This document shows positions 295 through 49,800 of a DNA stretch of 64,000 bases, in pieces (the first letter of the stretch is position 1; each line of letters opens with the position of its first letter). The notes under the pieces are model-generated. The model did not search any database, was not told the DNA's origin, and saw only the letters and a program-made list of their open reading frames with translations. Both the position numbers and the translations under genes were made by a program. Where the stretch lies: positions 14,674 to 78,673 of the forward strand of contig CALXJU010000001.1 in assembly GCA_944388705.1 (NCBI GenBank), given 5' to 3'. The DNA comes from an uncultured Clostridia bacterium. Lineage in GTDB: Bacteria; Bacillota; Clostridia; TANB77; CAG-508.

Positions 295-816
295 CTATAT
301 TTGTTTAGAAACAATCATATCTCTAATAATATAATCATTTTTTTCATAGAAATTTAATCCTTTTTTATTTGGACCAAAGACTTCAATATTGATTCTTTTA
401 CAATTAATACTTTTAAAGTATTCTTCCATTTTTTCTAATAAATTTTTTCCAACTCCTTGTCCACGTGCATCATTCCTTACTACTAATTCGAGTATAGCAC
501 CTGTTTTAGCACAATCATTTGTTAATTTGTCAATGTCATCCTTTTCTTCAACTATTCCTATAATTAGACCTATAAGAATGTTATTTTCTATAGATAAATA
601 AATTTTACCATTTTGCTGCATTACTTTTTGTTTATCAATTTTGAACATATTTTCTCTATATTCAGAAAGCAATATCTGCGTGTGCCAATTATCTATATCA
701 ATTAAATAGTTTTGCAATTCTACTAACAAGTCTTTAATTTGTTCATCATAAATTGAATCATATTCTATAATCATTGTAATCCTCCAATAATTAATATTTT
801 TTTCTAGTTTCTTCAA
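295..816 (-). CDS. GNAT family N-acetyltransferase
   Basis: 173-aa ORF carrying the GNAT motif VVRNDARGQGVGKNLL, in tandem with the upstream GNAT. Confidence 0.8.
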   Translation of the reverse strand: MKKLEKNINYWRITMIIEYDSIYDEQIKDLLVELQNYLIDIDNWHTQILLSEYRENMFKIDKQKVMQQNGKIYLSIENNILIGLIIGIVEEKDDIDKLTNDCAKTGAILELVVRNDARGQGVGKNLLEKMEEYFKSINCKRINIEVFGPNKKGLNFYEKNDYIIRDMIVSKQI

Positions 817-2002
817 GCCATTGCTTAAATTGTTCTTCAGTCTTTAATCCATTTTTAATATCTTGTTTAAATATATTTGCTTCTTCTTTCCACTTTTCAT
901 ATTTTTCTAAATACATTGGAATATCAGGATTTCTATTTGCTAACATCTTTTTCGCAGATAAAGTTTTTCTGTATAAAGCAGTTACTTCATTTTTTTTTAA
1001 TTTATCATTGTAAGTTATCATTGCTCCAATTTCTTGGCATGTTTTACCGTGTTCATATATATTATTGCAATATAGTGTATTTTTTTTTGAAGAAGGAATA
1101 AAGTATTTACCACAATTTTTACATACATATATTGGAGTATCATTTTTTATTAACTCTAAAAGAGTTATAAAACAAGCAGTCTCAATTGTATGGCAGTTAA
1201 AGCTGAAAGATAGGTAAATGTCATTATCATACTTTTTAGAATCACTTTTTAATTCTTTTGCAATAATTTTTGCATTTTCTTCAAGACTATTTTTGGCATG
1301 GCATAAAGAAGAAGGTGTTAGATTCTTTATGGGCTCTATATCGTACGAAAGAGTAATAAATTGACTTAATTCTAAATATAAATCAATATAATCATAATCC
1401 GCATATTTATAGATATAAAATCTATCAGCAATAGAAAAATCATTTAAATAATCTAAATTTGATAGGTTATTTATAAAATTAATTAATTTCTTAAATTCGG
1501 ATTGATATTTTATTAGAATTTTCTTTCGTTTTTCAAAAATTTTTTTGCAGACTATAATAAAATCATTTTCAGTTAAAAAAATATTTTTTTTATCATTAGC
1601 AATATTTAAATTGATATATTTATTAAATGGGTTGCTAGGTCCTTTGTTAACATCATAAAAGTCTATTCCTGGTATTCCATATTCACGTACAAACTCTATA
1701 AAGCAATTAAAATCAGTAAAATCATAATTTACAAATTTTAATAAAAGAGTTCCTAATTCATTTGCTTCGCTAACAAAATCAGATTTATATAATTTACAAA
1801 GACTATTAGAATAGTTAGAAAGATATTTTTTATATTCTTTTTTAGTTTTAAAGTCATCTTTTTCTTTTAGTATTGTGTATGAGTCATTATCTTTATTATA
1901 TGATGCATATACAATACTAAAAGAATCTCTTGTAAAAAATTCTTTATTGTTTGAGATACTCAATTTCATATAATAAATTGTAGACACAATATCAAACTTC
2001 AT
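791..2002 (-). CDS. hypothetical protein with C-terminal CxxC...C zinc-ribbon-like motif
   Basis: 403-aa ORF with motif VCKNCGKYF...YCNN...HGKTC. No family recognised. Confidence 0.5.
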   Translation of the reverse strand: MKFDIVSTIYYMKLSISNNKEFFTRDSFSIVYASYNKDNDSYTILKEKDDFKTKKEYKKYLSNYSNSLCKLYKSDFVSEANELGTLLLKFVNYDFTDFNCFIEFVREYGIPGIDFYDVNKGPSNPFNKYINLNIANDKKNIFLTENDFIIVCKKIFEKRKKILIKYQSEFKKLINFINNLSNLDYLNDFSIADRFYIYKYADYDYIDLYLELSQFITLSYDIEPIKNLTPSSLCHAKNSLEENAKIIAKELKSDSKKYDNDIYLSFSFNCHTIETACFITLLELIKNDTPIYVCKNCGKYFIPSSKKNTLYCNNIYEHGKTCQEIGAMITYNDKLKKNEVTALYRKTLSAKKMLANRNPDIPMYLEKYEKWKEEANIFKQDIKNGLKTEEQFKQWLEETRKKY

Positions 2003-2196
2003 ATAAGCCTCCTTGTTAACAATTACAAAAGAATAATAAATGTTGCTAATTTATATCATTTATCAATTTAACATATTGACTTACATAAAATTAGCAATTA
2101 AAATACAGTCAATAAACTTGTTAACAAGATTATACATAGTTAAATAAAAAAAGTCAATATAAAACCTTAAATTTATTTAACTAATGCGAATAGGAG

Positions 2197-2412
2197 GTGA
2201 TAATTATGTCAGTAGATAAAATACATAGAACTACTCTAACTGCAAAAGAGGCAGCAGAATATTTAGGAATATCATATTGGCTAATAACTCAATTAGTTAG
2301 AAGAAAACAAATTCCTTGTTCTAGAGTTGGAAAGAGAATTTTGTTTAGAAAAGAAGCTTTAGACATTTATTTGAGCAAAAAAGAAAATGATTCATTATTA
2401 GAATCTAACTAG
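2197..2412 (+). CDS. excisionase/MerR-type helix-turn-helix DNA-binding protein (mobile-element Xis-like)
   Basis: 71-aa ORF; LTAKEAAEYLGISYWLITQLVRRKQIPCSRVGKRILFRKEALDIYL matches the excisionase-family HTH; GGAGGT RBS. Confidence 0.7.
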   Translation: MIIMSVDKIHRTTLTAKEAAEYLGISYWLITQLVRRKQIPCSRVGKRILFRKEALDIYLSKKENDSLLESN

Positions 2413-2426
2413 AAAGAAGGGAGGAC

Positions 2427-2912
2427 ATGGAAAAAGTCAGATGGATAAAATTAAGCACAGATATATTCTCTAATAGAAAAATTAAAATCTTACTAAAAGA
2501 AAGGGATGGGGACACCTATTTTAGAATGTGGATTCAAATTTTAACTATTGCTGGAGAATGCAACAGAGGTGGAGGACTATATATTAGTGACGATTCACCA
2601 TTTAAAATCGAAGATTTTACAAACATTATCGGAAAATCTTCCAAAACTTTTACGAAAGTTTTACAAAAATTTGTAGATTTGGGCATGCTAATTTATAAGG
2701 ATGATACATACTTTGTGAAGAACTGGAATAGGTATCAAAGTACTGAAAAATTCAACAAAATTATAAAATCAGCTAAAGTAATTGAAGAGAATGAAAATGA
2801 AAAAAGTTCTGAAAATGAGACTATAGATAAGATAAGAAAAGATAAGACTATAATAGAAGAGAAAAGAAAGGAGAAAGAAATAGATGAATCAAATTTTGAA
2901 ACCCTCGTTTGA
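2427..2912 (+). CDS. phage replisome organizer N-terminal domain protein (DnaD-like)
   Basis: The N-terminus MEKVRWIKLSTDIFSNRKIKILL...TYFRMWIQILTIAGECNRGG is typical of phage replisome organizer proteins. Confidence 0.7.
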   Translation: MEKVRWIKLSTDIFSNRKIKILLKERDGDTYFRMWIQILTIAGECNRGGGLYISDDSPFKIEDFTNIIGKSSKTFTKVLQKFVDLGMLIYKDDTYFVKNWNRYQSTEKFNKIIKSAKVIEENENEKSSENETIDKIRKDKTIIEEKRKEKEIDESNFETLV

Positions 2913-3753
2913 TAAAAATGATTATATTGAGTGTGAATACTGTAAAAAGAAATTATACAGAAAAACAATAGAATGGCAATTATATGGTAATAAAAAAGTA
3001 TTAGCACTAGATTATGAAAGATGTAATTGTAAAAAAGCCAAACTTTATTGGAATGAATATGATTTAAAAAAATTAAAGATGTTAGAAGAAGAAAGAAAAC
3101 TAAAGTTAATGCAAGAATTTGCACAAAAAGTGGACAAGATAATAAAAAATAGTAAGATGAGTAAAAGAAGTCTGAATTATAAATTTGAAAACTTTGAAGT
3201 GAATTCAAACAATAAAAAAGTGTATCAGAGTTTAAAAGATTATAGTGAAAGATTTGTTAATTTAGAAGAAAGAAAAGGACTAATTTTAACAGGAAATAAT
3301 GGAGTTGGAAAAACACATTTAGCTTGTAGTATTGCAAATGAATTAATAAAAAATGGAATACCAATTATATATGGAACACTCATTAATTTATTAGCAGAAT
3401 TAAAGAATACTTATGATAATGATAATAATATTTCAGAAATGGAAATTATCAAATTATATGAAAAAGTTGATTTGCTAGTAATTGATGATTTAGGGAAAGA
3501 AAAGCCAAGTGAATGGGGATTAGAAAAATTATTTACTATAATAAATAGCAGATATGAAAATAATTTACCAGTAATTATAACAACAAATTATGATCAAAAT
3601 TCTTTGATAAATAGGCTAAGTATTAATGGAGAAATCGAAACAGTAAAGTCCATTATTTCAAGATTATATGAGATGTGCTACTTAGTAAAAATTAATGATA
3701 TAGATCATAGAATTAAAAAGAAAAAAGTTAGTAATTGCACCAACAATTGCTAA
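2884..3753 (+). CDS. DnaC/IstB-like AAA ATPase (replicative helicase loader) with N-terminal Cys-rich region
   Basis: Walker A LILTGNNGVGKTHLA and Walker B LLVIDDLGKE, plus NNLPVIITTNY. The 5' end overlaps the organizer gene. Confidence 0.8.
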   Translation: MNQILKPSFDKNDYIECEYCKKKLYRKTIEWQLYGNKKVLALDYERCNCKKAKLYWNEYDLKKLKMLEEERKLKLMQEFAQKVDKIIKNSKMSKRSLNYKFENFEVNSNNKKVYQSLKDYSERFVNLEERKGLILTGNNGVGKTHLACSIANELIKNGIPIIYGTLINLLAELKNTYDNDNNISEMEIIKLYEKVDLLVIDDLGKEKPSEWGLEKLFTIINSRYENNLPVIITTNYDQNSLINRLSINGEIETVKSIISRLYEMCYLVKINDIDHRIKKKKVSNCTNNC

Positions 3754-4128
3754 CTAAAAAATGTTATTTTTTAAATATTTTCTAGAAAAATTATAATTTA
3801 TTTTTGCAAAAAAGTAAATAAAAATTTACAAAAAAATTAGGACAGGTAGGTATAAAATTTTTAATAAACTGTCCTAATTTTTGTTAAAATAAAACATAAA
3901 AATAAATAAAAAAATATCCCTCGGAGAGCAAAAAGGGTATTAGGGCATTTTGCCCTAAACAGCAAAAAGGGTGTCAAGACACCAGGCTGGCGAATATTGG
4001 GCAGGAATAAATACCTACAATATTCGGAGCAAAAAATTTGCTCTTGATTTTCTGAAAATAGCTTTTGCTATTTCAGAAAATACAAATAATAAATTTAACA
4101 AAATGTAGAAAGAGAGAAAGTGATATTA

Positions 4129-4748
4129 TGAGAGTTGTAATGAATGAATTTGATAAAATATTTTTATCTTATAAAAAAATATTAAATAAATTTAAAATGT
4201 TAAATATAAAAACTAAAAACGGAAAAGAAATAACACATAAAGACTTAAGATATGCAGTATATGTAATGCTAAAAAAACATCCAACCTGTAGATGGAGAAG
4301 TGAAAAAATATTAAGCAGAAGATATTATATCCTAGATGAAGGATATAAATGGTTAAGATATGTGTATTTTCAAAACGAGAAAAAGCAAATAGATGCTGAT
4401 GTAGATTTTTTTGAAAACAGAATCAAACAATATGAAGAATTGTTAAAAGTAAAGCATAATGAAAATTGGTGGAATGAAGATATGACAATAAAACAATTAG
4501 AAGAATATTTTAATAAATCAAATTCAAGCATTAAAAAGGCAATTAGGAAAATGTGTGATAGTGGTTTTTATGATTATAAATATTTTGATAATAATAAAGT
4601 TATTATTTCTAGTGAAGGTGTTAAATGGTTATGCAAAAATATTTTTAAACAGAAGTATTTAGAGTTATTAGAAAAGTATAAGATGGAGTTAACTGAAATG
4701 TATATTAAAGCTGGATATATTTATGATGAGTTCTTTGGGATGAATTAA
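4129..4748 (+). CDS. hypothetical protein
   Basis: Open frame 4065-4748; ATG at 4129 has the best RBS (GAAAGAGAGAAAG). No recognisable domain. Confidence 0.45.
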
Positions 4749-4848: not shown

Positions 4849-6369
4849 ATGGCAAAAAAAGAATCAAGTACAACACTTGGATATGAGGATAAATTATGGC
4901 AAGCAGCGGACAAGTTAAGAGGTAGTATGGATGCGGCAGAATATAAGCATGTTGTGCTAGGGCTAATATTTTTGAAATATGTATCTGATGCTTTTGAAAC
5001 TAGACAGAAACAATTAGAAAAGGAAGAACTTGCGGATCCAGAAGACAAAGACGAGTATATTTCTGAAAATGTATTTTGGGTTCCAAAAGAAGCAAGATGG
5101 GAAGAAATATTAAAGCATGCAAATACACCAGAGATAGGTCAGATTATAGATAGAGCAATGGAAGCTATCGAAAAAGAAAACCCAAGATTAAAGAATGTAT
5201 TAAATAAAAATTATGCTAGACCAGAATTAGATAAAACAAGATTAGGTGAATTAGTTACACTATTTACAAATTTAGAAATAGGGACAGATAAAGCAAAAGA
5301 AATAGATATGTTAGGGAGAGTATATGAATATTTCTTGAGTAAATTTGCATCCGCAGAAGGAAAAAATGGTGGAGAGTTCTATACTCCAGCATGTATAGTA
5401 AAAACCTTGGTATCCATGATTGAACCATTTAATGGAAAGGTATATGATCCTTGCTGTGGTTCTGGAGGAATGTTTGTTCAATCTTATAAATTTGTAAAAG
5501 AACATCAAGGAAATTTAAGAGATGTGTCAATATATGGGCAAGAAAGAAACCCTACCACTTGGAAATTAGCTAAAATGAATTTAGCGATTAGGCAAGTTGA
5601 TGGAAATTTAGGAGATAGGAATGCAGATACATTTTTTAATGATTTGCATAAAACTCTAAAAGCAGATTATATACTTGCTAATCCGCCATTTAATATTTCT
5701 GATTGGGGTGGAGATAAACTAAAGGAAGATATAAGATGGAAATATGGTGTACCACCAGTAGGAAATGCTAATTATGCATGGTTACAACACATGATTCATC
5801 ACTTGAATCCAGAAACTGGAGTTGCAGGTACAGTTTTAGCCAATGGAGCATTGGCAAGCGATTCTAGTGGTGAAGGTGAGATTAGAAAGAATATGATTGA
5901 AGGTAGAATAATTGAATGTATAGTGGCTATGCCAAGTCAATTATTTTATGCTACAGGTATTCCTTGTTCTTTATGGATAATGAGAAAAAATAGAGATGAA
6001 AGCACAAAAGATAAGATTTTATTTATTGACGCAAGAAATTTAGGAACAATGGTAGATAGAAAAGTAAAAGAACTTACAGATGAAGATATTAATAAAATTG
6101 CTAGTACATATCATAATTGGAGAAAAAATGAGGACTATGAGGATGAATTAGGCTTTTGTAAATCTGCAACAATAGAAGAAGTAAAAGAAAATGATTATGC
6201 ATTAACTCCTGGAAGATATGTAGGTACACCAGAAGAAGAGGATGATGGAATACCATTTGAAGAAAAGATGAAGAAATTAACTGACGAATTATCTAAACAA
6301 TTAAAAGAAGAAGAAGCTCTTAATGTAGAGTTAAAAAAAGTGTTGGGAGCGATTGGATATGAAATTTAA
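4849..6369 (+). CDS. hsdM: Type I restriction-modification system DNA methyltransferase subunit M
   Basis: HsdM N-terminal signature [32 protein letters not shown] motif [10 protein letters not shown], catalytic NPPF in [12 protein letters not shown]. Confidence 0.95.
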
Positions 6370-6901
6370 TATGGTAAAAGCAAGTGAGTTTTGTGATTCA
6401 GTTAGAGATGGAACACATGATTCTCCCAAAAGAGTAAATAAAGGTTATAAGTTAATTACATCGAAACATATAAAAGAATATGGATTAGACTTAGAAAATG
6501 CTTATCATATATCTGAAAAAGATTTTAATAAAATAAATGAAAGAAGCTTAGTTGAAAAGAATGATATTTTGTATAGTATGATAGGAACAGTTGGGCTTAT
6601 TCATAGAATAGGCTATGAGCCTAATTATGCAATTAAAAATATAGGATTATTTAAGTTGAATGATGAAATAAAAAGTAAGTGGTTATATTATTACCTTAAA
6701 AGCCCTAAAATGAAATCTTATATTAATTCATTATTATCTGGTAGTACTCAACAATATATTACACTAAACAACCTAAGAAACTTACCAATAGCAATACCAG
6801 AAAATTATATTGATATGATTAAAATAATTAAAATTTTAGAGTTACTAGAAAAAAAGATTAATATAAATGCTCAAACAAATAATAATTTGTTAGTTGCTTA
6901 A
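6353..6901 (+). pseudogene. hsdS: Type I RM specificity subunit, 5' part (TRD1 plus central conserved region), ended by an in-frame stop inside a 46-bp insertion
   Basis: Start overlaps hsdM stop. The conserved central motif ILELLEKKININAQTNNNL is followed by LVA-stop. The homologous full-length copy at 8641 reads straight through (TNNNLYEIGKALYQEY). Confidence 0.75.
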
Positions 6902-6932
6902 AATTTTATAAATCAATTAGATAAATAATAAT

Positions 6933-7568
6933 TTGTATGAAATAGGAAGAGCTTATTTTGAAAATTATTTAGAAAGTTGTAAAGAAGAAATTAGTATAAA
7001 AGAAGTAGCTAATGAAATATTAGACTATCATAAATCTAAAGAGAAAAAAGTTAAACTAATAAATAGTAGTGATATAACAGAAAATAATTTCCCAGAATTT
7101 GAATTTGTTGATAATTGCAATTTAAAAGGACATTTCAAGAAGAGATTTAGAAAATATGATATATTATATTCTCAAATAAGGCCTAGAAACCATCATTTTG
7201 GATATGTTCTTTTTGGAAATACTGAAGAATATATTGCTTCAACAAGACTGATGGTTGTTAGAGCTAAAGAAGAGAAAATTTCAAGTTCATTACTATATTA
7301 CTATTTAACATCAAAAGAAGCAATAGAAGATTTTACAACAAAAACTGAAACTAGATCAGGAACTTTCCCACAAGGAAATTATGGGGATCTTTCAAGTTTT
7401 AAAATAAAATATAATAAAAATCAAGAAAATATAACGAATGTTTTAAACATTGTTTTAAATAGAATATATTCAAATCAATTAAAAACTAAAAATTTAGAAA
7501 AAATTAGAGATGCACTACTACCAAAACTAATGAATGGCGAAATAGACCTAGACAAAATAGAAATTTAG
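6933..7568 (+). pseudogene. hsdS: Type I RM specificity subunit, 3' part (central repeat remainder plus TRD2 plus C-terminal conserved region)
   Basis: Begins MYEIGRAYFENYLE, which continues the broken central repeat. Ends IRDALLPKLMNGEIDLDKIEI, identical to the C-terminus of the hsdS at 8641-9816. Confidence 0.75.
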
Positions 7569-7630
7569 TCATACAAATTGTTATTTGTTAACATAAATAG
7601 TATAATATTGCTTGGGAGGAATGATATTAT

Positions 7631-8632
7631 ATGGAAAAGGAAGAGATGATTTTAACAATAACAAATGAAATGTCTAATAATTTAACTAATTATCAGCTTG
7701 AATTATTAAAAAATGTACTAATAATAAAATTCCAAAATATTGAAATTACAGTATTGACTGATGAAATAAAGAAAAAGGAAGAACAGAATACTAACGAAAA
7801 ATTTATAAATTCCTTTTTATCTGCAAAAGAAATTGAAGGATGCTCTCAAAGGACGATATCTTATTATAAAGAAAACATACAACGTTTAATATCTAAATTA
7901 GAAAAGCCTATTAAGGGGATTACTACTGAAGATATAAGAAATTATCTTTCAAATTACAAGGAAACAAATAATTGTGGTAGTGTGACAATTGATAACATTA
8001 GAAGAGTATTTTCTAGTTTCTTTGCTTGGTTAGAGGATGAAGATTATATTATTAAAAGTCCTGTAAGAAGAATTCATAAAGTTAAGGCTGCATCGATAAT
8101 TAAAGAAACTTTTACAGATGAGAATATAGAAAAAATGAGAGATGAATGTAAAAATATTAGAAATTTAGCTATAATTGAATTATTAATATCTACAGGAATG
8201 AGAGTTGGAGAATTAGTTAATTTAAATATAGAAGATATAAATTTTGAAGATAGATCTTGTATTGTTCAAGGGAAAGGTAATAAGCAAAGAGAAGTATATT
8301 TTGATGCAAGAACAAAAATACATTTAATGCAGTATCTAAACATAAGAAAAGATGACAACAAAGCTTTATTTGTATCTAAAAATAAACCACATCAGAGGTT
8401 ATCAATTTCAGGAATCGAGCTAATTGTTAGAAAAATAGGAGTTAAAACGGATGTAAATAGAGTTCATCCTCATAAGTTTAGGAGAACATTAGCTACTATG
8501 GCAATAGACAAAGGAATGCCAATAGAACAAGTTCAGAAACTACTAGGACATGTAAAAATAGAGACAACAATGCATTATGCAATGGTAAATCAAAATAATG
8601 TAAAAATATCGCACAGAAAATATATAGGATAG
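7631..8632 (+). CDS. tyrosine site-specific recombinase (XerC/XerD/phage-integrase family)
   Basis: C-terminal catalytic motifs HPHKFRRTLATMAIDKGMPIEQVQKLLGHVKIETTMHYA (R...HxxR...Y). Embedded between two hsdS genes. Confidence 0.9.
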   Translation: MEKEEMILTITNEMSNNLTNYQLELLKNVLIIKFQNIEITVLTDEIKKKEEQNTNEKFINSFLSAKEIEGCSQRTISYYKENIQRLISKLEKPIKGITTEDIRNYLSNYKETNNCGSVTIDNIRRVFSSFFAWLEDEDYIIKSPVRRIHKVKAASIIKETFTDENIEKMRDECKNIRNLAIIELLISTGMRVGELVNLNIEDINFEDRSCIVQGKGNKQREVYFDARTKIHLMQYLNIRKDDNKALFVSKNKPHQRLSISGIELIVRKIGVKTDVNRVHPHKFRRTLATMAIDKGMPIEQVQKLLGHVKIETTMHYAMVNQNNVKISHRKYIG

Positions 8633-8640
8633 GAGGAAGA

Positions 8641-9816
8641 ATGAAGCTAGTTAAGTTAAGTGATATATCAAATAAGATTACAAAAGGAACAACTCCACAA
8701 AAGGAAGCATTTCAGGGAAAAGAAGTTAATTATATTAAATCTGAAAGCTTAAATTATAATGGACATATAGATATTAATTCTTTTTGTAGCATTGATATGG
8801 CAACACATAAATCAAAATTAAAGAGGTCAATTTTAAAAGAAAATGATATTCTTATATCTATTGCAGGAGCAAATTTGGGGAAAATAGGTATAGTAAGTAA
8901 AGATATGCTTCCTGCCAATACTAATCAGGCAGTGGGAATAATATCTTTAAAGCCTAATTTAGTTAAAAGTAGATATGTTTACTATTATATGCAGCAAATT
9001 AGAATAAGAAATATTATAAATAACTCTGTTGCACAGTCGGCACAACCAAACCTAAATCTTACACAATTAGGAAATATTAAAATTGAACTTCCTCAATTAA
9101 ATATACAAGACAAAATTATAAAAATATTAGATATTATATCAAAAAAAATAGACTTAAATATACGTACAAATAATAATTTGTACGAAATAGGAAAAGCACT
9201 TTATCAAGAGTATCTTGAAAATGAAGAATATACAAATAATTATGAAATAAGACAATTAAGCGAGATAACAACTAATAACAGAAATAAGATAGATCAAACT
9301 AAAGAATATAAAGTCTTATCTGCTGTTAATACTGGTAATCTAGTATTATCTGATGATTATTTTGATAAACAAGTTTATAGTAAAGACATAGGAAAATACT
9401 TAAATGTTAATAAAAATGACTTTGCTTATAATCCTGCGAGAATAAATATAGGTTCAATAGGATTAAATACTTTTGATTTTAACTGTTGTGTAAGTCCTGT
9501 ATATGTTACATTTTCAGTAGATAAAGATTATATAGATTTCTTTGATTTCTATTTTAAATCTAAAAGATTTAATGCTGAAGTAACATTAAGAGCTTCTGGC
9601 TCAGTTAGACAAGCTTTAAATTATAATGATTTTGGAATGATAGAAATACCATATCCGACAAAAGAAATGATTGAAAAATTTAATAGTTCATACAAAACAA
9701 TAAAGGAAAGAATCAATATAAATAAAACTAAAATAAGCAATTTAGAACAACTTAGAGATACACTACTACCAAAACTAATGAATGGCGAAATAGACCTAGA
9801 CAAAATAGAAATTTAG
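8641..9816 (+). CDS. hsdS: Type I RM specificity subunit, intact two-TRD copy
   Basis: 391 aa with two different target-recognition domains, a central repeat KILDIISKKIDLNIRTNNNLYEIGKALYQEYLE and a C-terminal repeat LRDTLLPKLMNGEIDLDKIEI. Confidence 0.9.
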   Translation: MKLVKLSDISNKITKGTTPQKEAFQGKEVNYIKSESLNYNGHIDINSFCSIDMATHKSKLKRSILKENDILISIAGANLGKIGIVSKDMLPANTNQAVGIISLKPNLVKSRYVYYYMQQIRIRNIINNSVAQSAQPNLNLTQLGNIKIELPQLNIQDKIIKILDIISKKIDLNIRTNNNLYEIGKALYQEYLENEEYTNNYEIRQLSEITTNNRNKIDQTKEYKVLSAVNTGNLVLSDDYFDKQVYSKDIGKYLNVNKNDFAYNPARINIGSIGLNTFDFNCCVSPVYVTFSVDKDYIDFFDFYFKSKRFNAEVTLRASGSVRQALNYNDFGMIEIPYPTKEMIEKFNSSYKTIKERININKTKISNLEQLRDTLLPKLMNGEIDLDKIEI

Positions 9817-9862
9817 TCATACAAATTGTTATTTGTAAAATAAATAGAGAGGAATGAAAGAT

Positions 9863-32539: not shown

Positions 32540-32920
32540 ATGATGTCAAGAAATGAATTTATATGTGATTGTAATATCATACATGAGGAAGTAGTAAAAG
32601 ACACATTAAGTAAAATGGCCGATGACGACTTATTTAATAAATTAGCAGAATTTTTTAAAATATTAGGAGACACTACAAGAGCAAAAATACTATTTGCACT
32701 TGACCAAAATGAAATGTGTGTATGTGATATAGCAAATGTATTGGGAATGAGTAAATCATCAATATCACATCAATTAGGAACATTAAGAAGGTCAGGAATA
32801 GTAAAATGTAGAAAACAAGGTAAAGAAGTTTATTATATGTTAGAAGATGACCATGTAAAAGGATTATTTGAATTAGGAATAGAGCATATTGAACATAAAA
32901 AATTAGGAGGTAGCATATGA
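32540..32920 (+). CDS. cadC: ArsR/SmtB-family metalloregulator (Cd/Pb/Zn-responsive CadC-like)
   Basis: N-terminal CDC plus MCVCDIANVLGMSKSSISHQLGTLRRSGIV HTH with the CVC metal site. RBS GGAGGT. Confidence 0.8.
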   Translation: MMSRNEFICDCNIIHEEVVKDTLSKMADDDLFNKLAEFFKILGDTTRAKILFALDQNEMCVCDIANVLGMSKSSISHQLGTLRRSGIVKCRKQGKEVYYMLEDDHVKGLFELGIEHIEHKKLGGSI

Positions 32921-34767
32921 AAAAAAGAGCGACAAAAATAATAATAGCTTTAATTTTATTTTTAATAGCAATTATAATAAAATTTCCAAACGAATGGCTC
33001 AATAAAGGAATATTTATAATAAGTTATTTAATTGTTGGAATAGAAGTATTAAAAGAAGCAATAGAAAATATATTCAAAGGAGAAGTTTTTGATGAAAACT
33101 TTTTAATGTCAATAGCAACAATAGGTGCTTTTGCAATAGGAGAATTTCCAGAAGCAGTAGCAGTAATGCTATTTTATCAAATAGGGGAATTATTCCAAAG
33201 TTATGCAGTAGATAAATCAAGAAAATCAATTGCAAGTTTGATGGATATAAGACCAGATTATGCAAATGTAAAAAGAGAAAATGAAATATCAAAAGTAAAT
33301 CCAGAAGAAGTTGAAATAGGAGAAACAATAGTAGTAAAACCAGGAGAAAAAATACCACTAGATGGAAAAGTAGTAGATGGAGAATCTTTAATAGATACAT
33401 CAGCGCTAACAGGAGAATCAGTACCAAGAAAAGCAAAAATAGGAGATGAAGTATTAAGTGGTTGTATAAATCAAAATGGTTTATTAGAAATAAAAGTAAC
33501 AAAAGAGTTTGGGGAATCTACTGTAAGTAAAATATTAGACTTAGTAGAAAATGCAAGTAGCAAAAAATCTAAATCAGAAAACTTTATAACAAAATTTGCA
33601 AGATATTATACACCAGCTGTAGTAATAATTGCAGTAATATTAGCAATAGTACCACCATTTATATTTCATAATGCAACATTTACAGAATGGCTATATAGAG
33701 CACTAACATTTTTAGTAGTATCATGTCCATGTGCATTAGTAATATCAATCCCTCTAGGATTTTTTGGAGGAATTGGTGGAGCTTCTAAAATGGGAATTCT
33801 AGTAAAAGGAAGTAACTATTTAGAAGCATTATCACAAACTGAGATAGTTGTGTTTGACAAAACAGGAACATTAACGCAAGGAATATTTGAAGTACAAAAA
33901 ATAGAGACAGAAGAAATTTCTAAAGAAGAGATGTTAAGACTTGTAACACATGCTGAAAACTATTCAAATCATCCAATATCACAATCAATAAAAAAGGCTT
34001 ATGGAAAAGAAATAGATAAAAATATAATTTCAAAAACAGAAGAAATTTCAGGAAAAGGAATTATTGCAAAAGTTGAAAATAATGATATAATAATTGGTAA
34101 TAATAAATTAATGGATGAAAAAAATATACAATATAAAAAATGTAATGAAATTGGAACAATATTATATGTAGCTATAAATAATAAATTTGCAGGATATATA
34201 GTAATTGCAGATAAAGTAAAAGAAGATGCTCAAAAAACAATAAAAACTTTAAAACAAAATCATATCAAAAAAACAGTTATGCTTACAGGAGATAAAAAAG
34301 AAGTAGGAGAAAAAGTTGCTAAAAAATTAAATATAGATGAAGTTTATACAGAATTATTACCAGATGGCAAAGTAGAAAAAGTTGAAGAATTAATCAAACA
34401 AAAAAGTGAAAAAGGAAAACTTGCTTTTGTAGGAGATGGAATTAATGATGCACCTGTTTTAGCACTTAGTGACATTGGAATAGCAATGGGAGGACTTGGC
34501 TCAGATAGTGCAATTGAAGCAGCTGATATTGTTATTATGACTGATGAACCATCTAAATTAATAAATGCAATTAAAATTTCTAAAAAAACAATGAGAATTG
34601 TTAAAGAAAATATAATTTTTGCAATTGCAGTAAAAGTAGCAGTTCTAATTTTAAGTGCATTTGGACTTTCAACAATGTGGGAAGCGGTATTTGCAGATGT
34701 TGGAGTTTCAGTTATTGCAATAATAAATTCATTAAGAGTATTAAGAGTAAAAAAATTTAATAAATAG
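32917..34767 (+). CDS. cadA: heavy-metal (Cd/Zn-type) P1B-type ATPase lacking an N-terminal HMA domain
   Basis: TM CPC motif, DKTGTLT phosphorylation site, GDGINDAP, HP motif SNHP. Overlaps the cadC stop. Confidence 0.85.
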   Translation: MKKRATKIIIALILFLIAIIIKFPNEWLNKGIFIISYLIVGIEVLKEAIENIFKGEVFDENFLMSIATIGAFAIGEFPEAVAVMLFYQIGELFQSYAVDKSRKSIASLMDIRPDYANVKRENEISKVNPEEVEIGETIVVKPGEKIPLDGKVVDGESLIDTSALTGESVPRKAKIGDEVLSGCINQNGLLEIKVTKEFGESTVSKILDLVENASSKKSKSENFITKFARYYTPAVVIIAVILAIVPPFIFHNATFTEWLYRALTFLVVSCPCALVISIPLGFFGGIGGASKMGILVKGSNYLEALSQTEIVVFDKTGTLTQGIFEVQKIETEEISKEEMLRLVTHAENYSNHPISQSIKKAYGKEIDKNIISKTEEISGKGIIAKVENNDIIIGNNKLMDEKNIQYKKCNEIGTILYVAINNKFAGYIVIADKVKEDAQKTIKTLKQNHIKKTVMLTGDKKEVGEKVAKKLNIDEVYTELLPDGKVEKVEELIKQKSEKGKLAFVGDGINDAPVLALSDIGIAMGGLGSDSAIEAADIVIMTDEPSKLINAIKISKKTMRIVKENIIFAIAVKVAVLILSAFGLSTMWEAVFADVGVSVIAIINSLRVLRVKKFNK

Positions 34768-34782
34768 AAAGGTGGAAAAATT

Positions 34783-34983
34783 ATGGAAGAAACAATAATA
34801 AAAGTAGAAGGAATGATGTGTACAGGATGTGAAAACAGAATACAAAATGCTGTAAGTGAAATAAAAGGAGTAGAAAGTGTAAAAGCAGACCATGAAAAAG
34901 GAATAGTGGAAGTAAAAGGAACAGCAGATATAAAAGAAGTAAAAGAGGCAATTGAAGACATTGGTTTTGAAGTAAAGGAATAA
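34783..34983 (+). CDS. copZ: copper chaperone (HMA domain)
   Basis: GMMCTGCENRI MxCxxC motif; 66 aa. Confidence 0.85.
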   Translation: MEETIIKVEGMMCTGCENRIQNAVSEIKGVESVKADHEKGIVEVKGTADIKEVKEAIEDIGFEVKE

Positions 34984-34987
34984 AAAT

Positions 34988-37201
34988 ATGAAAAAAGTAA
35001 TTTTAAAAATAGATGGAATGACATGTAGTGCATGTTCAAATGGTTTAGAAAAATATTTAAATAAACAAGAAGGAATACAAAATGCAAGTGTAAATCTAGT
35101 AATGTCAAATGCATTAATAGAATATGATGAAAAGAAATTAAATTTAGAACAGTTAGAAACATTTGTAAAAAAAGCAGGGTTTAAAAGTCTAGGATTATAT
35201 GATAATAAAACAGAAGAAGATAAAAATAAAGGAGAAAAAACAAAATTCATAATTTTTGGAGTATTAGCAGTAATATTGTTATATATTTCAATGGGGCATA
35301 TGGTTGGAATGCCAATATTTGATTTTTTAAATATGCATAAAAGTCCTATAAATTATACAATAGTGTTATTAATATTAACACTAGGCTTTATATATTATGG
35401 ATTTGATATATTAAAAAATGGATATAAAAACTTAATTCATAAAACACCAAATATGGATACATTAGTATCAATAGGTGTAATAAGCAGTATGGCATATAGT
35501 TTATACAGCATGGTAATGATATTCCAAGGAAAACATGAATATGTAGAATATTTATATTTTGAATCAGCAGCGATAGTAATATTTTTTATAAAATTAGGAA
35601 GATATTTAGATGGAATAAGTAAAGATAAAACAAAAGAAGCAATACAAAAATTAGTACAAATTACGCCAAATAAAGCTATAGTAAAAGTAGATGGAAAAGA
35701 AAAAGAAGTAACAATAGATGAAATAAAAAAAGGAGATATAGTTGTAAGCCATGCAGGAGATAGAATTTCAGTAGATGGTGAAATTGTAAACGGAAAAGCA
35801 CATTTAGATGAATCATTTATAACAGGAGAAAGTAAACCTTCAAGCAAAACAATAGGAAACAAGGTAATTGCAGGAAGTATAAATTATGATGGATATCTTG
35901 AATATAAAGCAGAAAAAATCGGAAGAGATTCAACTATTTCTCAAATAGTAAGATTAGTAGTAGAAGCAACTAACACAAAAGCACCAATAGCTAAAATAGC
36001 AGATAAAGTAAGTGGATATTTTGTGCCTGCAGTAATAATCATAGCAGTATTAACATTTATAGGTTATTTAGTACTTGGATTTCCATTTAATGAAGCAATA
36101 AGTTCATTTGTAACAATTTTAGTAGTAGCATGTCCTTGTGCATTAGGATTAGCGACGCCACTTGCAATAGTAGTAAGTGAAGGAACTTGTGCAAATGAAG
36201 GAATACTTGTAAAAAAGAGTGAAATCTTAGAAAATGCTGAAAAAATAAATACAATTGTATTTGATAAAACAGGAACATTAACATATGGAACTTTAAAAAT
36301 TGCTAAAATAATAAATTATAGCAATATAGAAGAAAAAGAATTAATGCAATATGTGGGAAGTTTAGAAGCAAAATCAACACATCCAATTGCAAAGGCATTT
36401 GAACAATACCTTAAAGAAAATAAAATATCAAATCTAGAAGTAAAAGAATTTGAAAATATAAGTGGTTATGGGATAAAAGGATTTGTTGCAGATAAAGAAA
36501 TAATTTTAGGAAATGCAAAAATTTTAACATATTTTAATATTGAAAATAAATATCAAGAAGATGAAAAACTTTTGAGTAAAGAAGGAAATAGTATTATATA
36601 TGTTGTGCAAAATAAAGAAGTAATTGCAATAATTGGAGTAAATGATATTGTAAGAGAAAATGCAAAACAAGTAATTGAAAAATTAAATAAAAATAATATA
36701 CAAACAATAATCTTAACAGGAGATAATGAAGAAACAGCTAAAATCATAGCAGAAAAAATTGGAATTGCAGATGTAATTGCAAATGTTGTACCATCAGAAA
36801 AAGCAGATATAATAAAAAAATTAAAATCAGAAAATAAAAAAGTTATGATGTGTGGAGATGGTATAAATGATAGCCCAGCACTAGCAAATGCAGATATTGG
36901 TGTTAGTGTAAATAGTGGAACAGATATTGCAATGGATTCATCAGATGTAATTTTAATGAAAAATGATTTAAGCAAAATATTAGACTTAATTAATATTAGT
37001 AAACATACAATTAGAAATATAAAACAAAATTTATTTTGGGCATTTTTCTATAATAGTTTGATGATACCAGTTTCAATGGGACTCCTAAGACCTTGGGGAA
37101 TTTCAATAAATCCAATGTTCGCAGGTTTTGCAATGGTTATTAGTAGCTTAACTGTTATATTAAATTCTTTGAGATTAAAAAAGGTGAAAAAAGTTATATA
37201 A
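34988..37201 (+). CDS. copA: copper-translocating P1B-type ATPase
   Basis: N-terminal HMA GMTCSACSNG, CPC, DKTGTLT, GDGINDSPAL. Confidence 0.9.
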   Translation: MKKVILKIDGMTCSACSNGLEKYLNKQEGIQNASVNLVMSNALIEYDEKKLNLEQLETFVKKAGFKSLGLYDNKTEEDKNKGEKTKFIIFGVLAVILLYISMGHMVGMPIFDFLNMHKSPINYTIVLLILTLGFIYYGFDILKNGYKNLIHKTPNMDTLVSIGVISSMAYSLYSMVMIFQGKHEYVEYLYFESAAIVIFFIKLGRYLDGISKDKTKEAIQKLVQITPNKAIVKVDGKEKEVTIDEIKKGDIVVSHAGDRISVDGEIVNGKAHLDESFITGESKPSSKTIGNKVIAGSINYDGYLEYKAEKIGRDSTISQIVRLVVEATNTKAPIAKIADKVSGYFVPAVIIIAVLTFIGYLVLGFPFNEAISSFVTILVVACPCALGLATPLAIVVSEGTCANEGILVKKSEILENAEKINTIVFDKTGTLTYGTLKIAKIINYSNIEEKELMQYVGSLEAKSTHPIAKAFEQYLKENKISNLEVKEFENISGYGIKGFVADKEIILGNAKILTYFNIENKYQEDEKLLSKEGNSIIYVVQNKEVIAIIGVNDIVRENAKQVIEKLNKNNIQTIILTGDNEETAKIIAEKIGIADVIANVVPSEKADIIKKLKSENKKVMMCGDGINDSPALANADIGVSVNSGTDIAMDSSDVILMKNDLSKILDLINISKHTIRNIKQNLFWAFFYNSLMIPVSMGLLRPWGISINPMFAGFAMVISSLTVILNSLRLKKVKKVI

Positions 37202-42953: not shown

Positions 42954-43030
<77 letters not shown>

Positions 43031-46888: not shown

Positions 46889-49800
46889 ATGTTAGAAGAA
46901 TTAACTCAAGCTCAAAAAAGCATTTGGCTTACTGAGAAATATTATCAAGGAACAAGTGTAAACACAATATGTGGAACAGCGATAATTGAAGAAAAAGTTG
47001 ATTTTGTAAAATTAAAAAAAGCTATTGAAATAGTATGTCAGAAATATGACATTTTTAAATTGTGTTTTAAAATAGTAGAAGGAGAAATAAAACAAGAACT
47101 ATCTGAAAAAAATAATTTCAAGATAGAAATTATTAATGTTGCAAATTTACAAGAATTAGAAAAAGTAAGAAAGAAAATAATAGAAAAACCTTTAGAAATA
47201 GAAAGTTCAGAACTATCTCAATTTTATATCGTTAAATTTGACAATGGCGAAGGAGCATTTATAGCAAATATCCACCATATAATTTCTGATGCGTGGACAT
47301 TAGCCATTGTGTGTAAAGAAATAATTCAAATATATTCAAATCTAAAAAATAATCAAGAAATAGAAACAAAAGCTAAATATTCATATATAGAACATATTAA
47401 TTCAGAAAAAGAATATATCAAAAGTGAAAAATTCCAAAAAGACAAAAAATACTGGGAAGAAAAATTTGAAAAAATTCCAGAAGTAGCAGTAATACCAGGA
47501 AGCAAAAATGAAATAGAAAATAACATAAAAGGAAACAGAAAACAATTTACAATAGATAAAAATATAATAGAAAAAGTAAAAAAATACTGTAAAGAAAATA
47601 GTATATCACTATTTAATTTCTTTATGGCAACTTTTGGTATATATATTTCTGAGATTTCGAATTTAGATGAATTTGTAATAGGAACACCAATATTAAATAG
47701 AACAAATTATAAAGAAAAAAGTGCAATGGGAATGTTTATTAATACTGCACCATTAAAAATTAATTTAAATGGAGTAGAAGATTTCAAAACATTTGTAAAA
47801 AATATAGCAATAGACTCATTAAATATGCTAAAACACCAAAAATATTCATATCAGTCATTATTAGAAAATTTGAGAGAAAAAGACAGAAATATCCCAAATT
47901 TGTATAATATATTGTTATCATATCAAATAACTGATACAACATTAAAAGATGAAGATATAAAATATAGGTCAGAATGGACATTTAATGGATATTGTCCTGA
48001 TAATATGCAAATACATATATATGATTTTAATGATACAGATAATTTTAATATAGCATATGATTATAGAACAAGTATTTATGATGAAAAAGATATAGAACAA
48101 TTACATGATAGAATAAAACATGTAATAAGACAAGTTATTTCTGAAGAAAATATTAAAATTAAAGATATAGAAATTGTAACACCAGAAGAAAAAGAAAAAT
48201 TAGTAATAGATTTTAACAAAACACAATTAGAATATGATAAAACAAAGCCAATAATAAAATATTTTGAAGAACAAGTAGAAAAAACTCCAGAAGAAGTAGC
48301 AATGGTATTTGAAAATAAAAAATTAACATATAAAGAATTAAACGAAAAAGCAAATAGTTTAGCACATAAACTAAGAGAAGAAGGAATAACAAATAATTCA
48401 ATTGTAGGAATTATGAAAGAGCGTTCATTTGAAATAATAATAGCAATAATAGCAGTGCTAAAGGCAGGAGGAAGTTATATTCCAATTGCACCAGATTATC
48501 CTGATGATAGAATTAATTATATGTTAGAAGATAGTCATGCACAAATTGTGTTAGTAGGAAAAAAGCAACTATCAAGAATAAAAGAAGGACAAAAAGCAAT
48601 AAATATAGATTTATCAAATAAAGAAATATATGATTATAATAAGGAAAATATAGAAAATATTTCAAAACCAGAAGATTTATCATATTTAATATATACATCT
48701 GGTTCAACAGGAATACCAAAAGGTGTAATGTTGAAACAACAAAATTTAAGTAATTTTTATAATGCCATGAAGTCAACAATCAAATATTTAAATGATGGAA
48801 ACAAACATAAAATAATATCAATAACAACATTATCATTTGATATATTTGGATTTGAAACACTAATGTCTTTAACAAGAGGATTAACATTATATATGACAAA
48901 TGAAAATGAACAAAAAATAACTTCAAAACTAGAAAAAATAATAAAAGAAAATGGTATAGAAATAATACAAACAACACCATCTGTAATGAAATTTCATTTG
49001 GATAATATAGAAGATATAAAAGATTTATCTAGTCTAAAATATGTAATCCTTGCAGGAGAACAATTACCAAAAACACTAGTAGATAGATTAAAAAAAGATA
49101 TACCAGGAGTAACAATATATAATGGATATGGACCATCAGAAACAACAATATTTTCAACAATAACAGATGTGACAAATTTAGAAAAAGTAACAATAGGTAA
49201 TCCTATAGCAAATACACAAATATATATATTAAATAAAAATAAAAAATTAGTACCACAAGGAACAATTGGAGAAATATATATAGCTGGAGATGGTGTTGGA
49301 AAAGGATACATGAACAAAAAAGAACAGACAGAAAAATCATATTTAAAAAATCCATTTATAGAAAATTCTATAATGTATAAGTCAGGAGATTTAGGTTCAT
49401 TTGATTCAAAAGGAAAAATTACTTGTTATGGAAGAATTGATAATCAAGTAAAGATAAATGGATTAAGAATAGAACTTTCTGAAATCGAAAAGTTGATGTT
49501 ATCAATATATAATATATCAGATTGTGTTGTAATAAAAAAACATATAAATGATAGAGATGCTTTATGTGCATATTATACACAAAAAGGACATGTTGAAGAA
49601 GAAATAATAAAAACTGTATTAAAAAATAAATTACCACAATATATGATACCACAATATTTTATAAAAATAAATCAAATGCCACATACACCAAATGGAAAAA
49701 TAGACAAAAAACTATTACCAGAACCTAGTATTCAAGAAAATGATAAACAAATTATAAAAATAAGAAATCAAATAGATGAAGAATTAATCAAAATGATTAA

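Follow-up and report, generated by a model that had tools for sequence, protein, structure and literature searches.

A probable phase-variable Type I restriction-modification locus of the tvr kind in an uncultured Clostridia bacterium

A 64,000-nucleotide stretch of DNA from an uncultured Clostridia bacterium (GenBank assembly GCA_944388705.1, contig CALXJU010000001.1; hereafter the window) carries a Type I restriction-modification (RM) locus in which a tyrosine recombinase gene lies between two hsdS specificity genes. We assign a probability of roughly 0.8 to the interpretation that this is a phase-variable locus of the tvr (SpnIV) kind, whose embedded TvrR-family recombinase recombines two classes of sites, co-directional within each class. 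An initial annotation of the window had already proposed a phase-variable Type I system with direct repeats. This proposal gains support from public contigs in which the same modules occur in four arrangements, from breakpoints that fall exactly in the mid-gene and tail repeats, and from the homology of the embedded recombinase to TvrR.

All genes of the locus lie on the plus strand of this 26% G+C host DNA in the order hsdM, split hsdS(a), recombinase, intact hsdS(b), hsdR, an order that had been read from the sequence and that is borne out by the open reading frame (ORF) list and by Pfam and NCBIfam searches. HsdM, HsdS and HsdR are encoded together, which identifies a Type I RM system; Methylase_S is matched three times, and hsdR scores above the cutoff of its NCBIfam model, TIGR00348. 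The two hsdS copies had been described as carrying different target recognition domains (TRDs) around a common central motif. Indeed, TRD1a and TRD1b are 27% identical and TRD2a and TRD2b are 31% identical, while the conserved regions of the two genes align and the central motif ...TNNNL-YEIG is present in both. The TRD segments are co-directional between the upstream hsdM and the downstream hsdR, and the same layout is found in related contigs (L011, L012, L016 and L126-L150; contigs are labelled with L-numbers throughout).

The motif ACAAAT-N4-ATTTGT occurs four times in the 64-kb window, each time inside the hsd locus, compared with an expectation of 0.07. When one degenerate copy (P2) is added, there are five candidate recombinase sites, all within the locus, and they fall into two classes. 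Specifically, the three mid-gene P copies share 16-17 bp of identity, and P1 and P3 read ACAAAT-AATA-ATTTGT and lie within the codons for TNNNL of the central conserved region. E1 and E2 read ACAAAT-TGTT-ATTTGT and lie 4 nt past the hsdS stop codons (7566-7568 and 9814-9816). The P copies are direct repeats of one another, as are the E copies, and the two classes have the same arms (ACAAAT/ATTTGT) and different 4-nt centres. In relatives the palindrome arms are CATACAAAT/ATTTGTATG. A P/E-like sequence with one mismatch, ACAAAGCTTTATTTGT, is also present inside the recombinase gene (8358-8373) and is conserved in the lineage; no breakpoint is seen there.

Each E core closes a longer tail repeat. 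The initial annotation had reported a 78-bp near-perfect direct repeat, which is real: 77 of 78 bases match between 7513-7590 and 9761-9838, with an exact run of 76 nt. The second copy had been placed at 9771-9848, displaced by 10 nt from its actual position. Because the identity of the tail repeats stops exactly at the right edge of E in every lineage, and can be as short as 29 nt (L011), these alignments point to E, and not to long homology, as the functional element of the tail repeat.

Evidence for rearrangement comes from natural variants. The exact recombinase, HsdM, HsdR and 2a-half protein sequences were looked up in public assemblies of gut metagenomes (ENA SPAdes and MEGAHIT assemblies, and Logan), all of them built from short reads. 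This yielded about 40 contigs with modules 99-100% identical to those of the window, arranged differently; an exact look-up of the intact HsdS(b) protein found no record. With i denoting a short stop spacer, the window reads M[1a-P-i-P-2a-E]rec[1b-P-2b-E]R, which we call state A ([1a-i-2a] rec [1b-2b], with 1b2b intact) and which is also found in L107 and L006. State B ([1a-2a] rec [1b-i-2b], with 1a2a intact) is found in L001, L002 and L003. State C ([1a-i-2b] rec [1b-2a], with 1b2a intact) is found in L097 and in L096 plus L008, which are from one sample, and state D ([1a-2b] rec [1b-i-2a], with 1a2b intact) is found in L106 (a 92.5-kb contig), L109, L112 and L093 plus L005. States A, B and D each occur on single contigs that run from hsdM to hsdR (the window, L107, L001 and L106), and state C was pieced together from junction contigs.

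These permutations are precise, and apart from them the contigs are 99.9-100% identical. L001 differs from the window by 10 mismatches over 12.5 kb, and the sole structural difference is the position of a 46-bp unit that contains the spacer. Similarly, L107 (state A) and L106 (state D) have the same single-nucleotide polymorphism (SNP) background and are exact permutations of the modules. In L001 the TRD2a half is fused to TRD1a, in L008 it is joined to TRD1b, and in L106 it follows 1b-i. Throughout the contigs of this lineage, TRD1a is always beside hsdM and TRD1b is always behind the recombinase gene.

Every breakpoint lies in P or in the tail repeat. All nine possible combinations of left (1a, 1b or i) and right (i, 2a or 2b) flanks are seen at P, as are all four combinations at E; the i-to-i junction is confined to a strain that has a different TRD1 allele (L111). 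No contig contains a P x E hybrid junction, and no module is in reverse orientation in about 60 related contigs.

RecA-type homologous recombination or gene conversion, acting between hsdS conserved regions or between strains, might generate such variants with the recombinase uninvolved. Lactococcal hsdS genes do recombine through their conserved regions, and the tail repeat provides 76 bp of perfect identity. Moreover, excision at the long tail repeats of the pneumococcal tvr locus persists at a low level without TvrR (PMC6265443, Kwun et al. 2018). However, the crossovers at P are confined to 13-17 bp of identity (for example, in L008) between flanks that are 73-79% similar, which is below the usual minimum for efficient homologous recombination. 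The palindromic P and E sites, in turn, are conserved across lineages whose flanks have diverged and match the sites of the TvrR system, and this recombinase family is embedded in hsdS loci of several phyla. On balance, we consider recombination of the RecA type improbable as the source of the four arrangements.

The initial annotation had also noted that hsdS(a) is interrupted by a 46-bp insertion that carries a stop and duplicates a 13-mer. The insertion and its in-frame TAA are real, although the 13-mers lie at 6877-6889 and 6923-6935, and not at 6882-6894 and 6925-6937 as had been given. The inserted segment consists of spacer i plus one copy of P, and the spacer is relocated precisely into hsdS(b) in L001, L002, L003 and L010. 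Equivalent spacers are present in about nine lineages as 12 alleles of 20-31 nt, all 12 with an in-frame stop and 10 with stops in all frames. The annotation had left open whether the insertion was a recombination scar or a deliberate arrangement; its precise movement between the hsdS genes and the conservation of a stop spacer in relatives lend no support to the former and favor the latter. Because the segment is conserved in relatives and leaves a single intact hsdS per arrangement, the spacer is a design feature.

The same observations bear on whether the locus might simply be static, with hsdS(a) a decaying pseudogene and the 46-bp insertion a one-off duplication scar. In favor of this idea, hsdS(a) as it stands in the window is interrupted by a stop and its C-terminal half has no ribosome-binding site. 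The idea is scarcely credible once other contigs are considered, where the 46-bp unit sits precisely in hsdS(b), with hsdS(a) restored, in otherwise identical DNA. Stop spacers between two P sites recur among the lineages and alleles counted above, and in other contigs intact genes contain, in frame, the TRDs that belong to the split copy here.

Several variants depart from the simple pattern of four states. Spacer copy number varies, such that the upstream hsdS of L111 (652-760) carries P-i-P-i-P and another spacer allele is present downstream. In L108 (4194-4245 and 6457-6508) and in L126, a spacer is present in both hsdS genes, neither of which is intact; these may be OFF states. The hsdR gene is broken into two ORFs in L002 (3017-6148; 209 and 821 aa) and in L109 (2403-5539; 414 and 631 aa), with hsdM, hsdS and the recombinase gene intact, and the corresponding samples may have lost restriction and kept variable methylation. 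Finally, L095, L108, L110 and L111 have hsdM genes that are 98-99.7% identical, followed by different TRD1 alleles, and carry TRD2b variants that are about 90% identical. These allele differences are between-strain diversity on top of switching.

Could the alternative arrangements be artefacts of short-read assembly across repeats? Some contigs do have the marks of such errors. L139 and L140 are impossible or ambiguous walks through repeats, L138 starts with an inverted E region, and the 76-bp repeat, being longer than the assembly k-mer length (k), contains thirteen uninformative contig ends. The identity at P (at most 17 bp), by contrast, is below any assembler k-mer, so the junctions there need real reads. 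Identical junctions turn up in independent samples and in the output of different assemblers (SPAdes, MEGAHIT and Logan), three of the four states are each contained in a single contig, and four further lineages behave in the same way. Thus, assembly error is a very improbable explanation for the arrangements.

The positions at which contigs end provide additional information. Nine true contig ends, in contigs from seven samples, terminate inside the 16-bp P core. L099 and L100 (Logan) end at the last base common to '1a-P-i' and '1a-P-2x', and L094 ends one base later, at the last base common to '1a-P-2a' and '1a-P-2b'. Because the assembler k exceeds the length of identity at P, ends in P represent real branches of the assembly graph, and they indicate that more than one arrangement exists within single samples. 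Logan contigs extend 29-30 nt into the 76-nt repeat, a reach that matches what we take to be the Logan k of 31. Most contigs with this recombinase measure only about 2.2-2.4 kb, a length equal to the tail-repeat spacing, so the locus is a place where short-read assemblies systematically break.

A few contigs have structures that invite further interpretation. L139 (40-4561) contains two identical tandem units of 2261 bp, each with the recombinase gene and a 395-aa hsdS, bounded on one side by the tail repeat of a different TRD2 and on the other by the hsdR flank. This tandem could represent a circle, a tandem reintegration or a loop that the assembler walked twice. L004 and L139 can be read as loops through the recombinase gene and hsdS. 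We set aside L139, L140 and L004 as decisive cases for circles or tandem reintegration, since mixtures of arrangements give the same loops in an assembly graph. Likewise, L113, in which 1c-i-2a directly precedes hsdR, was dismissed as a post-excision deletion because it runs through the 76-bp repeat and may be chimeric. The beginning of L138 (1-120) is an inverted copy of its own E1/tail region, a palindromic end that is probably an assembler artefact and possibly a real inversion at E.

How might four arrangements arise from a single set of sites? We hypothesize that the recombinase catalyses excision, by P x P or E x E recombination, of a circle of about 2.25 kb that carries its own gene, and that this intermediate reinserts at a site of the same class. 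Excision between P2 and P3 followed by reinsertion at P1 would convert state A to state B, and excision between P1 and P3 followed by reinsertion at E would convert state A to state D. Sister-chromosome exchange would lead to identical products and would explain loci with two spacers as well; excision and reintegration is probably the route of shuffling. With shared arms and different centres, P would pair only with P and E only with E, and the difference in centre sequence would prevent P x E recombination. The spacer, with its stops in three frames, splits one hsdS and leaves the other intact (1b2b, 1a2a, 1b2a or 1a2b), of which presumably only the intact gene is functional. The outcome would be a four-way switch of methylation and restriction specificity that covers every combination of N-terminal and C-terminal TRDs. 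A candidate promoter for the recombinase gene would travel with the circle and could be occluded by recombinase bound at E1.

The recombinase itself is 59% identical to TvrR over 286 aa without gaps, and its catalytic residues can be located (R191, K218, H281, R284, H307 and Y316). Automatic annotation will probably call it Xer or an integron integrase, as it scores 248.9 against the NCBIfam XerA (XerA_Arch) equivalog, whose cutoff is 220. The integron-integrase models give only 81.7 (cutoff 265) and 40 (cutoff 435), and the sites are simple 16-bp palindromes, not attC. We also rejected a Xer chromosome-dimer resolvase, given that in many of the 80 closest loci an hsd operon contains the gene for the enzyme and that its five candidate sites are all in the locus.

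More broadly, the gene might be the integrase of a surrounding island or prophage, or a Xer-type dimer resolvase, that came to lie between the hsdS genes by chance. The XerA score would fit this idea, as would the replication and mobility genes nearby (Phage_rep_org_N, DnaC-like and HTH_17 in the window, and a relaxase gene in L135). The degree of identity to TvrR and the confinement of candidate sites to the hsd locus argue strongly against it. In addition, the recombinase gene lies between or beside hsdS genes, within an hsdM...hsdR operon, in many of the 80 closest GTDB loci, which come from several phyla, such that a chance location is a negligible prospect.

Between the end of hsdS(a) (stop at 7568) and the beginning of the recombinase gene (7631) there are only 62 nt, and this interval contains no ORF and no terminator-like hairpin. 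A TATAAT box lies 9-12 nt downstream of E1 in most related lineages. A promoter scan of this AT-rich DNA gave 45 matches, compared with 40 expected from shuffled sequence, which is not an enrichment; the promoter therefore stays a candidate.

The fate of the split hsdS halves deserves separate attention. The N-half is an intact ORF with translational coupling to hsdM, ends in ...TNNNL-LVA-stop, and is annotated as a 180-aa gene in L097 and L107; gene callers choose ATG 6359 as its start. The C-half has a TTG start and no Shine-Dalgarno sequence, and is therefore probably a silent cassette in the window arrangement.

Across the 12 spacer alleles, the encoded ends of the N-half are without exception LLVA, LLAA, LQAA, YNVA, KLVA or KLVV. 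The alleles differ in length and in their 3' part, yet all finish with [LQN][VA][AV]-stop, and all four Val codons and three Ala codons are used despite the 26% G+C of the DNA. Because the tail is kept in the protein despite these varied codons, the orphan N-half protein appears to be under selection at its C-terminus.

Tails of the form L-A-A or L-V-A are classic signals for ClpXP-type degradation. This likeness raises the possibility, which we put forward tentatively, that the spacer is a movable silencing cassette, put by the recombinase into either hsdS gene, that both stops translation in all three frames and adds an L-V-A/L-A-A tail marking the half-HsdS for ClpXP-type proteolysis. If true, then there would be exactly one specificity subunit per arrangement, and a locus that carries two spacers would be switched OFF. 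The resemblance is to ssrA-type tags (...LAA, or the engineered ...LVA), which the N-half ends L-V-A, L-A-A, Q-A-A, N-V-A and L-V-V recall. However, ssrA-type tags are added by tmRNA, whereas the putative tail here is gene-encoded and only three residues long, so that its role as a degradation tag is speculative. Wherever the recombinase is 72% identical or more, the N-half has one of the ends just listed. As a general feature the idea fails in more distant relatives, since the halves in L014, L015 and L017-L019 end differently and the mid-gene doublets of L064 and L069 are in frame with no stop.

These two contigs belong to Opitutales relatives with a different type of mid-gene element. A 66-nt in-frame duplication adds 22 aa (DWEDYFSICHKIIELEEENQNL) without a stop, and is present in both hsdS genes of L064 (5156-5237 and 7439-7520) and once in L069 (7511-7592). 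A Victivallaceae locus (L074) has a stop spacer that ends in EKRAA.

A different role for the split gene is compatible with the proposed switch. The split hsdS might be a working half-HsdS pair, in which the N-half (TRD1 plus the central helix) forms a dimer or joins other halves and adds a second, palindromic specificity to each arrangement; the truncated HsdS proteins of EcoDXXI and EcoR124I act as dimers. The intact, hsdM-coupled N-half ORF is consistent with this possibility, and the C-terminal tail is conserved at the protein level, so the N-half is probably translated. The C-half, by contrast, offers only a TTG start without a Shine-Dalgarno sequence, the conserved L-V-A/L-A-A end resembles a degradation signal more than an assembly interface, and there are loci in which both copies are split. 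We therefore view a functional half-HsdS pair as unlikely.

Relatives of the locus were surveyed as the 80 closest loci from GTDB genomes. In many of these, an hsd operon of direct or mixed orientation contains a member of the recombinase family (58-83% identical), and the hosts include Clostridia and Bacilli metagenome-assembled genomes, Bacteroidota, Streptococcus and other groups. The recombinases of L011, L012 and L016 are 72-83% identical, and these contigs share the M-S-rec-S-R layout and both motifs, P and E, with the window; one hsdS gene of the two carries a P-spacer-P doublet. Four further lineages (L126-L150; 83-87% identical recombinase) behave likewise, with the spacer in hsdS(a) in L135, in hsdS(b) in L136 and L143, and in both copies in L146 and L147. 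Thus, wherever the recombinase is 72-87% identical, P, E and the doublet are conserved, and the spacer may be found in hsdS(a) or hsdS(b) within one lineage.

Several points weigh against the interpretation of this locus as a recombinase-driven switch. All variants come from short-read metagenome assemblies, among which L139 and L140 are ambiguous graph walks. Strain mixtures, and not switching within a clone, could be the source of the heterogeneity within samples; in L004, for example, the two copies of TRD1b differ by SNPs. At 76 bp, the tail repeat has the length needed to recombine without the recombinase, as has been reported for the tail-end repeats of tvr. Both hsdS genes are split in L108, L111 and L126, so the rule of exactly one intact hsdS is not universal. 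Finally, the arms form palindromes, and the best match between E and P is to the opposite strand (19/20 for the arms at 6921-6940 and 7569-7588), which leaves the orientation of E relative to P ambiguous when judged from sequence.

The coordinates of the features discussed above are given in Table 1.

Table 1. Features of the hsd locus, in window coordinates.
Feature	Position	Strand	Support or remarks
hsdM, Type I methyltransferase subunit	4849-6369	+	Pfam N6_Mtase 1.7e-111, HsdM_N
hsdS(a) N-half: TRD1a and left part of central conserved region	6353-6901	+	Methylase_S 4.9e-14
P1, mid-gene site ACAAATAATAATTTGT	6875-6890	+	Breakpoint of rearrangements; conserved in relatives
Stop spacer i, between P1 and P2, 30 nt	6891-6920	+	TAA 6899-6901; stops in three frames
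P2, mid-gene site ATAAATAATAATTTGT	6921-6936	+	Degenerate left arm; closes the 46-bp insertion
hsdS(a) C-half: TRD2a and C-terminal conserved region	6933-7568	+	Methylase_S 7e-08
Tail repeat copy 1	7513-7588	+	76 nt exact; ends in E1 core ACAAATTGTTATTTGT (7573-7588)
Candidate recombinase promoter	7578-7606	+	-35 TTGTTA inside E1, 17 nt, TATAAT 7601-7606; 10/12 consensus match only
Recombinase ribosome-binding site GGGAGG	7614-7619	+	
Tyrosine recombinase, TvrR family	7631-8632	+	Phage_integrase 1.5e-38, SAM-like N domain
hsdS(b), intact in window (TRD1b-P3-TRD2b)	8641-9816	+	Methylase_S 1.5e-19
P3, mid-gene site ACAAATAATAATTTGT	9166-9181	+	Compensated 9-bp arms CGTACAAAT / ATTTGTACG
Tail repeat copy 2	9761-9836	+	Ends in E2 core (9821-9836)
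hsdR, Type I restriction/translocase subunit	9854-12994	+	HSDR_N, SWI2_SNF2, T1RH-like_C; TIGR00348 2.6e-188

Genes of mobile elements and of defence surround the locus. Upstream (window 791-4748) are genes for DUF6076, HTH_17, Phage_rep_org_N (a replisome organiser) and a DnaC-like ATPase, and downstream of hsdR (12972-16678) are genes for WapI-like, metallophosphatase and AbiEii-like AAA_21 proteins. A relaxase gene precedes hsdM in one related lineage (L135:1-555). The locus thus appears to lie on or beside mobile elements; a comparison of the 8-kb locus with phage and plasmid collections gave no informative match. Elsewhere in the window (32917-37201, 42954-43030 and 46889-54346) are two adjacent, overlapping P-type ATPase ORFs, one with an HMA domain, as well as a tRNA-Arg(ACG) and a 2485-aa ORF.

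In the literature searched, the shuffling of direct-repeat hsdS genes by excision and reintegration has been studied experimentally in one organism, the pneumococcus, and surveys of epigenetic phase variation in the gut concentrate on inverted repeats. One such gut-microbiome survey deals with inverted repeats and contains neither the term 'excision' nor the term 'direct repeat'. Judging from the sequences of the present locus and its relatives, the direct-repeat mechanism is common among gut bacteria that are uncultured and low in G+C, where it appears to be active enough to yield several arrangements per sample. Search tools that look only for invertons will miss such loci, which also break short-read assemblies. 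The set of sites is compact, comprising a 16-bp palindrome with two centres that would be incompatible. Four TRDs would give four specificities, one at a time, by means of a movable stop spacer, and this design could be reused as a natural multi-state DNA switch.

The use of the same arms with incompatible centres resembles cassette exchange with lox and lox2272, by which a segment is swapped without scrambling. The lox system is engineered, whereas the incompatibility of P and E is suggested by the absence of P x E products.

Inverting hsdS shufflons, such as pneumococcal ivr/SpnD39III and those of Mycoplasma pulmonis hsd, Bacteroides fragilis and Streptococcus suis, likewise reshuffle TRDs site-specifically through the conserved regions of Type I hsdS genes and have an embedded recombinase. 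These 'epigenetic invertons' (Huang et al. 2020, PMC7672463) operate by inversion between inverted repeats with a silent hsdS in the opposite orientation, whereas here both hsdS genes are on the plus strand and all segments are co-directional. Recombinase relatives at about 60% identity do sit in mixed-orientation loci of Streptococcus and Bacteroidota. Direct-repeat hsdS loci were rare among the loci sampled in that study, which predicted excision and reintegration for one in Sphaerochaeta halotolerans (PMC7672463). The likeness to the latter, compared here through its published mention only, consists of direct repeats in hsdS next to a recombinase gene.

The closest counterpart is the pneumococcal tvr (SpnIV) locus, which has co-directional TRD segments between hsdM and hsdR and a tyrosine recombinase, TvrR (PMC6265443, Kwun et al. 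2018). Its repeats are about 18 bp at the midpoint and about 70 bp at the tail end, with a common core of about 11 bp. Its shuffling is enhanced by the recombinase, circular intermediates have been detected, and there are four arrangements in which the segment beside hsdM is fixed. A toxin-antitoxin pair (TvrAT) and an attenuator restrain tvrR and modulate the rate of shuffling (PMC6265443).

We fetched tvr loci with a published tvrA primer (TvrR is encoded at L116:3637-4602). Their midpoint repeat is CTCGTCAAAT-CCCG-ATTTAACGAG and their tail-end core is GACAAAT-CACA-ATT(T/G)G. Both systems therefore have an hsdM...hsdR operon of co-directional segments with an embedded tyrosine recombinase, and both use a core of (A)CAAAT-N4-ATTT with the arm, 4-nt centre and arm design of P and E. 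The repeats are also of similar size, with 17 bp here for the mid-gene repeat and 76 bp for the tail. Each has three mid-gene sites (m) and two tail sites (t) in the order N1-m-X-m-C-t-R-m-C'-t, and each has four arrangements with the TRD beside hsdM fixed.

The two systems differ in how this common plan is filled. HsdM and HsdR share only 25-28% identity with their tvr counterparts, and the tail core lies behind the stop codon here and inside the coding region in tvr. Segment R is tvrA-tvrT-tvrR in tvr and the recombinase gene plus TRD1b here, where a TvrA/TvrT (phd-doc-like) pair and an obvious attenuator are lacking; we treat these as accessory for a tvr-like class. Segment X is a complete second N-terminal TRD in tvr and only a stop spacer of 20-31 nt here. 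Accordingly, tvr has 2+2 states, some with two complete hsdS genes and others with one, whereas each of the four arrangements described here has a single intact hsdS, because X is a stop spacer and TRD1b travels with the recombinase.

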